This document shows positions 12,624-15,490 of a stretch of 64,000 nucleotides of DNA, one piece after another. The DNA is from Desulfobacterales bacterium (GTDB lineage Bacteria > Desulfobacterota > Desulfobacteria > Desulfobacterales > UBA5852). Position 1 is the first letter of the stretch; each line of letters starts with the position of its first letter. The stretch spans positions 1,760,001 through 1,824,000 of the forward strand of contig CAXXVS010000003.1 of NCBI GenBank assembly GCA_963674755.2. The letters are read 5' to 3'. The position numbers and the translations under genes were made by a program. The notes below the pieces were generated by a model. The model searched no databases. It was not told where the DNA came from and was given only the letters and a program-made list of their open reading frames with translations.

Positions 12624-12677
12624 TGGGGATGGAGTCCCCCCTGTTAACCGCCCGGGCTGGGCTGATGACTCCTACCG
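12624..12677 (+). promoter_or_regulatory. Fluoride riboswitch (crcB motif), copy 2
   Basis: Same sequence as 10319-10372; lies about 130 bp upstream of the full-length dynamin-like gene. Confidence 0.92.
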
Positions 12678-12804
12678 GCAGTCATGATCGGTGGGATTAT
12701 TCTGGAGAGGCCCGCAGGCGGTTTTCTTATGCCTAAATGCGCTAGTGGCCTCTTTGGATGCAAGCATTCCACATGAATGCTTAAACGACAACAGGGAGGT
12801 AACA

Positions 12805-14667
12805 ATGACGCCAAAAGCATCTTCGCCGTTTTGCCGCCAAAACCCACAGCTTTCCGATTTACTCGATAAAACAGCCGGCATGATGTCGGACTTCGACCCG
12901 CAATTCCTTCACTACCGTCAAAAGCTGAATGACTTGGCCTCCCGCTATTCCGAGGGACGGTTTCACTTGGCGGTTCTCGGCCAATTCAAGCGCGGCAAAA
13001 GCACACTGCTCAACGCGTTGACGGGCGGGCCGCTTTTGCCCGTAGGGGTGGTTCCATTGACGGCGGCACCGACCTTCCTCCAATATGGTGAAGCCGCCAA
13101 AATCACGATCCAATATCAAGACGGCCGTCCGGCGGATGAATTCGCCGGCGCCTCGACCGCCGAGAGAAGTGCCTTTCTGGCCCGCTTTGTTACCGAAAAG
13201 GGCAACCCCAAAAACAAGCTGGGTGTCGCTGAAGTCCAGGTGGATCTGCCGGTCCCTATTCTAAGCGGTGGCGTGGTCTTGATTGACACGCCCGGAATCG
13301 GCTCCACCTATCGCCATAACACCTCTGCGACGCTCAATTTTCTGAAACAATGCGATGCGGCCCTGTTTCTGGTTTCGGCCGACCCGCCCATCACCGAAGT
13401 GGAACTGGCATTCCTGCGGCAGGTGAGCGTAAAGGTGCCGCGATTGTTCTTTGTTTTAAACAAAATCGATTACTTGAACGAAGAGGAACTTGAAGAGGCA
13501 CTTGCTTTTTACAAACACATATTGTCCGAGGAACTCGGCTGGATCAGCGACCATCCGGTCTTTTGCGTATCGGCCCGCAAAGGTCTCGAGGCCCGAACAT
13601 CCACCGCGGCCGATGGGTGGTCCGCCAGCGGCATGGCGCGATTGGAAGCCTTTCTGGTGGATTATCTTGCCAGGGAAAAGTTCACCGCCTTGACGGATGC
13701 CGTTTGCCGAAGGGCGCTGGAGCTTATCGACGCCACCCTGATGGAGGCCGGTATCGTCTTGCAGGCGCTCAAACTGCCCCAACAGGAACTGGAAGAAAAA
13801 ATCGGTGTTTTCGAACAAAGTCTCAGGCAGGCCGAAAGTGAACGCCGGCTGATCCAGGATGTTCTGGAAGGCGATAAAAAGCGCGTCACCGCCTTTGTGG
13901 AAGAAGAGGCCCGTGACCTGGCCCGTCAAGCCGAACAATTTTTGAAGGAGATCATGGATCGCGGCCCTGGTTCGCGAATCTACGGTCAATCTTCAAAAGC
14001 AGGCATCCAGCAGGCCTGGGCGGAGGCGATTCCCGATTATTTCGAGGCGCAGCGGGAAGCGCTAAACGAACGCGTCAAAGAGCGCCTGCTGGAGTGCCTG
14101 ACACCCCATGAAGAGCGCCTTTCCCAACTCGTGGAAACCCTGCGGCAAACCGCCGCCGACATGTTCCAGGTGCCCTACAAGCCCCTTTCACCGGAGCGGG
14201 TCCTGGAGGTCAAACGGAAGCCCTATTGGGTGTTGAGCACGTGGAACACCGATCCCCTGCCCGCTTTGCTGTCCATGGACCAGCGTCTGGACGGGCTGGT
14301 CCGGCGCAACGTGGAGAACATCCGCTGGTCCATGCTCCAGAACCTGAACCTTTCCTTTGCGGGGTTTGCCCGCCGGACCCGCGAACGCCTGGATGAAACC
14401 GTAGCCGCGACCCAGGGGGCCATGCAGGCGGCCCATGCACGGCGACAAGCCGACGATGGGGGCATCGCAGCCGAAGCAGCCCGCATGTCCGACCGCATGG
14501 CGCTATTGGAGGCTGTCAAAATCGATTTAACACTTTTTCAGGATAGCTTATCGCCGGCGAAGGATGAAACAACACCGGATCGTGCCCAGTCGATAGGCAG
14601 TGATCGTGGGCTTGACGGGCGCCTTGTGGATGGGCCGCGTCCGCACTGTCAATCCATAACCAGGTAG
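12805..14667 (+). CDS. Bacterial dynamin-like GTPase, full length (620 aa)
   Basis: G1 GQFKRGKS, G2 PLT, G3 DTPG, G4 NKID, VSAR, then a long helical/coiled-coil region; GGGAGG SD before ATG 12805. Confidence 0.9.
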   Translation: MTPKASSPFCRQNPQLSDLLDKTAGMMSDFDPQFLHYRQKLNDLASRYSEGRFHLAVLGQFKRGKSTLLNALTGGPLLPVGVVPLTAAPTFLQYGEAAKITIQYQDGRPADEFAGASTAERSAFLARFVTEKGNPKNKLGVAEVQVDLPVPILSGGVVLIDTPGIGSTYRHNTSATLNFLKQCDAALFLVSADPPITEVELAFLRQVSVKVPRLFFVLNKIDYLNEEELEEALAFYKHILSEELGWISDHPVFCVSARKGLEARTSTAADGWSASGMARLEAFLVDYLAREKFTALTDAVCRRALELIDATLMEAGIVLQALKLPQQELEEKIGVFEQSLRQAESERRLIQDVLEGDKKRVTAFVEEEARDLARQAEQFLKEIMDRGPGSRIYGQSSKAGIQQAWAEAIPDYFEAQREALNERVKERLLECLTPHEERLSQLVETLRQTAADMFQVPYKPLSPERVLEVKRKPYWVLSTWNTDPLPALLSMDQRLDGLVRRNVENIRWSMLQNLNLSFAGFARRTRERLDETVAATQGAMQAAHARRQADDGGIAAEAARMSDRMALLEAVKIDLTLFQDSLSPAKDETTPDRAQSIGSDRGLDGRLVDGPRPHCQSITR

Positions 14668-14735
14668 ATAGACCCAAAAGAAGGTGTGAGATGAAGAATA
14701 CGACCCATTCGTCATGTGAAAAGGGAGGACTGATA

Positions 14736-15490
14736 ATGAAGCCAAAGATTGGGAAAGTCTCCGCTATGCAGATCTCGACTCGCGGGGCAACCCGACGGTA
14801 AGGGTCTTCTGCCGCCTGGACAATGGCTTCCAGGCATCCGCCTCGGTGCCATCGGGCGCTTCGACGGGTGAAAACGAGGCTGTCGAGCTGCGCGATGGAG
14901 AAACGGGGCGTTATAACGGCAAGGGCGTTTGGGCGGCGGTCAAAAACGTCAACGAACGCATTGCGCCCAAACGTTTGCCGAGGCCCTGCGCTAGGGTGCC
15001 GAAACCTTTCATGCGCTTAAAAAAATATTGTCCCAGAAAGGTTATGCCACTGCCGTGGGTGACAAAGGCGGGTTCGCCCCGAACCTGAAAAGCAACGAGG
15101 AAGCCTGCGAGTTGATCGTCGAGGCCATCACCACCGCCGGCTATGAACCCGGCCGGGACGTGGCCATCGCCCTGGATCCGGCAGCGAGTTCTTTCTACGA
15201 AGATGGCCGCTACAATCTGCCAAGTCCGGGCAGGGCATGCAAACCAGCGATGCCATGAGCGAGCTCTACGCTCAGTGGGTCTCCAGATTTCCCATCGTCT
15301 CCATCGAGGACGGGCTGGCGGAAAACGATTGGGACGGTTTTCGGGCGCACACCGCCGCCCTGGGGGACCGGATCCAGATTGTCGGGGACGACGTCTACGC
15401 CACCAACACAACATTTATTGCGCGCGGCATCCGGGAAAAGTGCTCGAATGCCGTGCTGATCAAGCTCAATCAGATCGGCACGGTGACCGA
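14736..15490 (+). pseudogene. eno: Enolase pseudogene
   Basis: GGAGG SD, then [72 protein letters not shown] spread over shifted frames; in-frame TAG near 14992, an internal deletion of roughly 100 codons after ERIAPK, and no C-terminus. Confidence 0.92.

Follow-up and report, generated by a model that had tools for sequence, protein, structure and literature searches.

The closest described relatives of the locus reported here are the fluoride regulons of other bacteria, such as ppaC-uspA-eno-gpmA-crcB of E. cloacae FRM (PMC5533749; Weinberg 2010, PMC2864571), in which, by the parts of these sources available, a full-consensus aptamer is likewise overlapped by a terminator-like helix. A terminator overlapping the aptamer is the mechanism described for transcriptional fluoride switches in the available part of PMC12667848. 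Our locus lies in 64,000 nucleotides from a Desulfobacterales bacterium (contig CAXXVS010000003.1, positions 1,760,001 to 1,824,000); "the window" below means this whole stretch. Its relatives share with the known regulons the partners eno, usp, Na+/H+ antiporter, MutS-V and crcB. Its own first gene, a dynamin-like GTPase, is not listed in those parts of PMC5533749 and PMC2864571. A sequence-only reading had placed a fluoride riboswitch directly ahead of this GTPase; the two do stand together, and the link recurs in bacteria and archaea. What is paired is a known riboswitch class with a known protein superfamily, seen at the window in a decaying, recently duplicated copy.

The Rfam covariance model RF01734 matches the window aptamer over the full model, scoring 59.5 bits where the gathering score is 34 (E 5.5e-14), a significant match that bears out the consensus crcB-class aptamer claimed earlier. 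The pairing of P1 and P3 is present in the alignment to the model, as is pseudoknot complementarity (GGAGU at 12631-12635, ACUCC at 12668-12672). The 6.7-Mb, three-contig genome has two RF01734 matches, this one and its identical copy (Table 1). The 120-nt leader folds as one long helix (minimum free energy -51.8 kcal/mol, z -2.3), in which AACCGCC of the aptamer (12646-12652) pairs with GGCGGTT (12717-12723) ahead of the U-tract TTTTCTT. Compared with the known fluoride regulons, the putative terminator is a composite helix of about 80 nt that starts at the aptamer's AACCGCC. The competing terminator of the sequence-only reading stands in part: its hairpin at 12670-12696 does take up the aptamer's 3' strand, but it was placed too short, with merely TTATTCT 3' of it, and the conserved U-tract closes the longer helix ending near 12728. 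Searching by pattern in 33 selected loci gave 28 leaders, 21 of which have the outer helix with its U-tract. The tract has at least six T in 20 orthologous leaders with the motif and is interrupted in the window leader, whose putative terminator may therefore be leakier than those of its orthologues. Judged from the leader sequences, the composite helix appears conserved without proof by covariation, since the outer helix is invariant in the 21-row leader alignment and covariation is uninformative there. A scan for consensus promoter and terminator patterns returned nothing on the + strand, including at the candidate -10 element and the 12646-12728 helix; a GGTGT.A-rich stretch similar to that element occurs in several orthologous leaders.

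Table 1. Features of the riboswitch-GTPase locus and its duplicate (window coordinates)
Feature	Position	Strand	Evidence or remark
Tandem duplication, first copy, exact 2305 bp	9385..11690	+	Second copy 11690-13995, 100% identical
Second fluoride aptamer, identical	10311..10376	+	Rfam RF01734; inside first copy of the 2305-bp duplication
Truncated GTPase copy, residues 1-397 + 47 unrelated residues	10500..11834	+	Open reading frame and duplication comparison
HD-domain gene upstream of switch	11776..12333	+	Duplicate at 9471-10028; not seen as part of the fluoride unit
Candidate extended -10 promoter element TG-n-TATATT (inferred)	12602..12610	+	Read from sequence
Fluoride riboswitch aptamer (crcB motif, RF01734)	12616..12681	+	59.5 bits
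Composite terminator-like expression platform	12646..12728	+	Outer helix AACCGCC/GGCGGTT + U-tract; fold, leader alignment
Inner hairpin sequestering the aptamer's pseudoknot 3' strand	12670..12696	+	Fold, -14.9 kcal/mol
Shine-Dalgarno GGGAGG	12794..12799	+	Read from sequence
Dynamin-like GTPase, 620 aa	12805..14667	+	Open reading frame, Pfam Dynamin_N 96 bits, AF2 (AlphaFold2) model, Foldseek
Enolase pseudogene, remnant of fluoride-operon enolase clade	14736..15500	+	Nucleotide and amino-acid comparison with intact enolases

Behind the Shine-Dalgarno sequence, which is present as claimed, the 620-residue dynamin-like GTPase opens at ATG 12805, again as first read. Its GTPase motifs are intact (G1 GQFKRGKS 59-66, T86, G3 DTPG 161-164, G4 NKID 219-222), as G1-G4 are across the family. 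The AF2 model (pLDDT 88) has a G domain with neck and trunk helix bundles, and its top Foldseek matches are IniA (6j72, E 4e-20) and BDLP (2j69, E 4e-19). The sequence profile finds BDLP1 best (E 1e-45), then IniA and the C. jejuni pair (5owv), and a second profile segment matches the C-terminal helices of BDLP1/IniA-type proteins. There are matches to the PADLOC LeoA model (E 1e-23) and a DynA model (E 8e-27) and a weak one to CrfC (E 6e-5); with 93.6 bits against an equivalog cut-off of 1600, and being 620 residues long and not two-headed, the protein falls outside DynA (NF052648). No transmembrane segment is found in its 620 residues. The window gene encodes an intact, soluble BDLP1/IniA-like GTPase, of a family with 1,793 representatives at E <=1e-30 whose members are named in the sources "dynamin family protein" or EngB-like. 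Its tip loop, at about 454-490, is basic and contains Trp and Pro; in 113 of 136 family members the tip is 64 residues long, PYWV..W being followed by an amphipathic basic helix, and none of the family tips exceeds a 19-residue Kyte-Doolittle (KD) hydropathy of 1.6, so that a strongly hydrophobic tip is not seen. The window gene and that of a strain sharing the broken enolase downstream differ by 8 synonymous and 6 non-synonymous changes (binomial p 0.007), which is consistent with continued purifying selection on the GTPase. A branch pN/pS comparison, meant to reveal whether selection on the GTPase had outlasted that on the enolase, proved uninformative (GTPase 0.10-0.16, enolase remnant 0.11).

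The link between riboswitch and GTPase is real, old, widespread and specific to this GTPase family. In the named loci, which span Desulfobacterota, Bacillota, Ignavibacteriota and Methanospirillum, the aptamer lies within about 250 nt of the GTPase in 16 of 22; in one it lies at 1.7 kb, in one it precedes just a C-terminal fragment, and four have none over the cut-off. Within the order the family is found in 41 of 301 genomes and in none of six congeners, and five congeners have neither the aptamer nor this region of the genome. The 40 other positive genomes contain 42 family hits (47 rows less five extra fragments of split genes), examined with 62 of 63 aptamer rows, one partial row being dropped. 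An aptamer lies no more than 500 bp upstream in 32 of the 42 (three of them 0.4-1.3 bits under the cut-off), within 2 kb in 34 and within 10 kb in 36, whereas none of the 86 other Dynamin_N matches in the same 40 genomes has one within 10 kb. For 18 of the 40, the sole aptamer found lies ahead of the GTPase. Six order-sample genomes are also among the named loci, and the two counts are therefore not additive. A metagenome survey, using an aptamer model built from 42 aptamers and 76 of 80 loci (four had too little flank), places an aptamer no more than 500 nt upstream in 52 loci and within 3 kb in 13 more (3 of these 65 score 25-29 bits). In the archaeal phylum of locus L017 the aptamer is within 500 nt in 7 of 13 hits and within 1.5 kb in 9, and three hits have a weak one. 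Aptamer-linked rows occupy most clades of a 137-row FastTree tree (built without duplicates, short-flank loci and rows under 480 aa), one long-branch clade of six being essentially unlinked, and the linkage still holds where the proteins are about 30% identical, from one domain to another, and where the downstream genes differ. The sequence-only reading had allowed that homologues elsewhere might never be linked, the pairing then being a deletion accident. The contrast between family hits (32 of 42) and other Dynamin_N matches (0 of 86) speaks otherwise, and recurrence in the named, order, metagenome and aptamer-first samples rules a deletion accident out as the origin of the linkage; it fits just locus L025. 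There, in another lineage, an internal deletion has left the aptamer directly before just the C-terminal 105 or so codons of the GTPase. In a separate clade (L014-L016, L106, L110, L111; Chloroflexota where named) the GTPase adjoins a prenyltransferase-fold gene, and the loci yielded no strong aptamer.

Starting from the aptamer gives a second view of the same association. A match is present in 58 of 151 genomes of the phylum, and the sample used here comprises 55 other genomes over the cut-off, with 71 aptamers. A GTPase starts no more than 500 bp downstream of 19 of these and Fluc of 6; within 3 kb the counts are 22 and 11. Counting the first family-assigned gene in the 29 best-scoring aptamer loci, we find a Na+/H+ exchanger in 11, Dynamin_N in 9, Fluc in 3, an NADHdh-type gene in 2, and CLC, MutS_V, HEAT and an unassigned gene once each. 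The loci with a Na+/H+-exchanger-family gene first behind the aptamer (L057, L060, L062-L064, L066, L072, L078-L081) often belong to genomes in which no Fluc was found, and this gene is a candidate for an unrecognised fluoride exporter. A strong aptamer at L067 is followed directly by a minus-strand gene (491-1492) to which Pfam assigns no family; judged by eye, the N-terminus of its product looks like that of the GTPase family, of which it is possibly a divergent member.

Over 102 loci the GTPase has known fluoride-response genes as neighbours: enolase (28 loci), Na+/H+ antiporter (20), Usp (14), MFS (13) and MutS-V (12). The GTPase is often alone behind the switch. A second G1-bearing hit lies near it in just 5 of the 102 loci, a count from which divergent partners could be missing, and an adjacent second full dynamin-like gene, as in the IniA/IniC, DLP1/2 or Leo pairs, is absent from the locus, where the truncated self-copy alone is present. 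One long operon, at L240 (G102:C523), reads GTPase-cfa-MutS_V-MutS_V-Na+/H+-Usp-Fluc.

The window operon itself is in decay. The enolase pseudogene described in the sequence-only reading is there, 68 bp past the GTPase stop; it is frameshifted near its start and again near 15220, lacks some 280 bp (residues ~80-172), contains an in-frame stop and breaks off at about residue 351. The intact enolases that follow the GTPase in L010 and L006 are 80-85% identical to it in nucleotides; the two intact enolases of its own genome are less close (43-71% amino-acid identity over matched pieces). The operon is cut inside the enolase at about 15490, where an unrelated cytochrome b561/UPF0182 block begins on the opposite strand. 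In genome G287 (locus L010), which has the most similar GTPase (84% identical), the run is aptamer-GTPase-small ORF (open reading frame)-MFS-SCO4226-eno-Na+/H+-Fluc-DUF190/CBS; G299 and G102 have similar runs, Fluc included, and G209 has Fluc at a contig end. Since the runs of close relatives continue through eno and the Na+/H+ antiporter to Fluc, the absence of an exporter at the window reflects operon decay. The earlier description of the GTPase as first and only intact gene of an exporter-less operon is therefore half right: the first gene alone survives intact, and the relatives carry Fluc in the same gene run. The window genome has, in addition, an unlinked, intact-looking Fluc-DUF190/CBS pair without an aptamer.

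It is very probable that the GTPase belongs to the fluoride regulon. The fullest explanation, a fluoride-switched operon whose GTPase repairs or remodels membrane, we favour with modest confidence, and the role itself, membrane repair or remodelling under fluoride, which is argued by analogy, we regard as evenly balanced. By this explanation a transcriptional ON switch would head what was formerly a long fluoride-stress operon of GTPase, enolase, Na+/H+ antiporter, Usp, Fluc and DUF190/CBS. Going by structure and class behaviour, the long helix would invade the aptamer when fluoride is absent and end transcription near 12728, and binding of Mg2+ and F- would let transcription read through. Hydrogen fluoride (HF) influx would acidify the cell and drain the proton-motive force. 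The product, a mostly solo, soluble GTPase of the BDLP1/IniA type, would place its trunk tip on the inner face of the cytoplasmic membrane, as its analogues suggest, and its GTP cycles would repair or remodel the membrane and keep it proton-tight, alongside antiporter, Usp, spare enolase and Fluc. HF entry, acidification, loss of proton-motive force and membrane changes are all tied to fluoride in the available part of PMC11139923, and that of PMC12700350 describes fluoride-linked membrane damage in S. mutans. In the part of PMC6715688 available, IniA binds anionic lipid through a basic tip loop and cuts membranes.

Several observations weigh against this explanation. The window subclade has lost some 18 residues of the tip, among them the amphipathic basic helix, as have all rows more than 50% identical, and because of this loss membrane binding is least certain for the window GTPase itself; the tip region is also of low confidence in the AF2 model. 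The membrane-modifying gene cfa (cyclopropane synthase), considered and rejected as a general neighbour, lies beside the GTPase in G102 alone and at none of 102 other loci. Eleven of the 76 metagenome loci have no upstream aptamer, and linkage is weaker in Bacillota, the phylum of L021, where flanks of at most 1.5 kb show an aptamer within 500 nt in 8 of 30 hits and within 1.5 kb in 12, a weak one in three more and none in 15. The genomes are related, so that the linkage counts overstate independence. Covariation of the terminator is thin, with a double change in 7 of 25 pairs of the 21-row alignment.

Other functions would account for parts of the same evidence. Metal-fluoride complexes trap GTPases, and the switch might exist to compensate for the trapping of GDP-bound enzyme by Mg-fluoride, raising its level or supplying a fluoride-tolerant stand-in, as for enolase. 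Such reasoning has been applied to enolase and pyrophosphatase (PMC11139923 and PMC5533749, each in part), and enolase is the commonest GTPase neighbour (28/102 loci). We nevertheless think compensation unlikely: the family is accessory (41/301 genomes of the order, 0/6 congeners), other Dynamin_N genes of the same genomes are not switch-linked (0/86), and IniA is monomeric with GDP-AlF4 (PMC6715688, in part). The GTPase might instead remove fluoride independently of exporters, shedding vesicles or damaged patches that carry fluoride or Mg/Ca-fluoride and so taking over part of the work of Fluc and CLC-F. In M. tuberculosis, IniA/IniC bring about the release of vesicles (PMC10240201, in part), and Fluc is rarer in GTPase-bearing genomes, both in the aptamer-first sample (4/23 vs 15/32 without the GTPase; p 0.043) and in the order sample (9/34 vs 24/46; p 0.024; 34 of the 40 positive genomes and the first 46 negatives). 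Nor was the sequence GREGT/V, the CLC-F signature according to the available part of PMC11139923, present in any readable motif among the CLC genes examined (43 matches in 41 genomes; 33 examined, the motif unreadable in 4). Removal also seems unlikely, however, given that about half of the GTPase-negative genomes have no Fluc either, that most genomes are metagenome-assembled and related, that the operons of the closest relatives contain Fluc and the window genome has one, and that vesicles would be a slow route beside a channel.

Fluoride could also act as a co-activator. GDP·MgFx can lock G domains, and here it would lock G-domain dimers into a stable membrane coat that stiffens the membrane just while fluoride is high. 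The intact G1-G4 motifs across the family suit this idea, as do related mitofusin structures called transition-like states in their titles, the part of those records drawn on; IniA, the top structural match, forms no dimer with GDP-AlF4 in solution (PMC6715688, in part), and we consider co-activation very unlikely. We take an equally reserved view of a role away from the membrane, in which the GTPase scaffolds or remodels complexes of operon partners (MutS-V ATPases, HEAT proteins, prenyltransferase-fold proteins, enolase). The absence of tips above KD 1.6, the tip deletion of the window subclade, the recurrence of soluble neighbours and the weak CrfC match would fit such a role, but there is no constant partner (at best 28 of 102 loci), the GTPase is often alone behind the switch, and the fold matches are membrane remodellers. 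That the GTPase is a passenger on a mobile fluoride cassette, or the product of a deletion accident, with no fluoride-related function, is suggested by its patchy distribution, by the GC content of 49-54% at 7-13 kb of the window against 58% genome-wide, by the five congeners that have neither aptamer nor region, and by the decay of the operon in the window genome; this we hold to be highly improbable, as the link is retained between proteins about 30% identical, in bacteria and archaea alike and ahead of differing sets of genes, and a plasmid search gave no match at E <=1e-30. A fluoride "sponge" working by stoichiometric GDP-MgF binding was rejected on arithmetic, as millimolar fluoride would need tens of mg/ml of protein.

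If membrane repair or remodelling is indeed the function, a membrane-remodelling branch is added to fluoride resistance, which in the available part of a 2024 review is incompletely explained by exporters; the finding suggests that microbes respond to fluoride in part by membrane upkeep, a part that has drawn little notice. A broader proposal, which we regard as doubtful, would make the family a widespread and ancient membrane arm of fluoride defence, which in the many genomes where neither Fluc nor CLC-F was found would confer tolerance with no known exporter, through the sealing or shedding of membrane, possibly as a fluoride-locked coat; in Desulfobacterota the GTPase ranks in the top two of the genes that come first after the switch, and above Fluc. 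The inducers and cellular roles of most bacterial dynamin-like proteins are largely unknown, and here a riboswitch identifies the signal for a large family, whose function thereby becomes open to test with an inexpensive inducer. The matter is relevant to anaerobes of interest in organofluorine breakdown, in many of which no Fluc was seen among the sampled genomes.

The tandem duplication at the locus, which the sequence-only reading had overlooked, results in two HD genes, two riboswitches and, beside the intact gene, one GTPase cut after residue 397 and joined to 47 unrelated residues. The truncated copy keeps the G domain and is without the tip loop and C-terminal helices; standing under its own riboswitch, it may act as a dominant-negative, and transcription running on from it could extend into the second HD gene. 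In sequencing runs X1 and X2 the repeat is a collapsed 2306-nt unitig at about twice the downstream depth (24.5 vs 9.8; 30.3 vs 17); these runs are one sample, possibly the source of the assembly, and not independent support. Run X3, from another sample and study and about 99% identical, has one contig across 13995 at flat depth, with a single copy and the same broken enolase. From the doubled depth in X1 and X2 and the single copy in X3, it would appear that the duplication is recent and probably real. An assembly artefact, considered in view of the 100% identity of the copies and a 771-nt poly-C run in the window, is made less likely by the roughly doubled depth of the 2306-nt unitig. That near-pure poly-C run (30584-31354) is itself almost certainly a sequencing or assembly artefact, and the 459-residue ORF across it has no Pfam match. 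Elsewhere in the window, 7675-8748 and 6023-7534 hold genes for a KamA-family radical SAM aminomutase, below all equivalog cut-offs, and its neighbourhood, which includes an MlrC/M81 peptidase and a peptide ABC transporter, and 36198-40879 holds two atypical Hsp70-like genes, one with DUF3731.

No link between the fluoride riboswitch and a dynamin or GTPase was found in the literature searched, with Baker 2012, Breaker 2012, McIlwain 2021 and the Weinberg gene-context files outside the search. The terms "GTPase", "GTP" and "dynamin" do not occur in the available main texts of PMC2864571, PMC11139923, PMC7266159, PMC12667848 and PMC5533749, nor in the readable supplements of Weinberg 2010, of which Additional files 1 and 3, where gene contexts would most likely be given, lay outside the search. 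A one-line listing of the pairing in Baker 2012, Breaker 2012 or McIlwain 2021 is quite possible.

Among described proteins, LeoA/LeoBC, DynA and the C. jejuni DLP1/2 pair belong to the same superfamily as the window GTPase, which differs from them in being single-headed and mostly unpaired, with no defence context seen. BDLP1 has a hydrophobic paddle. This protein of Nostoc punctiforme (2j68/2j69) is the best sequence-profile match and has the same domain order; it differs in that identity is 16-17% in the structural alignment and the window family is without a strongly hydrophobic tip. IniA of Mycobacterium (6j72/6j73; PMC6715688, in part) is alike in its G domain, its neck and trunk bundles, its length of about 600 residues, a tip loop in place of a transmembrane paddle, and its inducibility by stress. 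It is about 20% identical, is induced by isoniazid within iniBAC and is paired with IniC, whereas the window GTPase stands under a fluoride switch.

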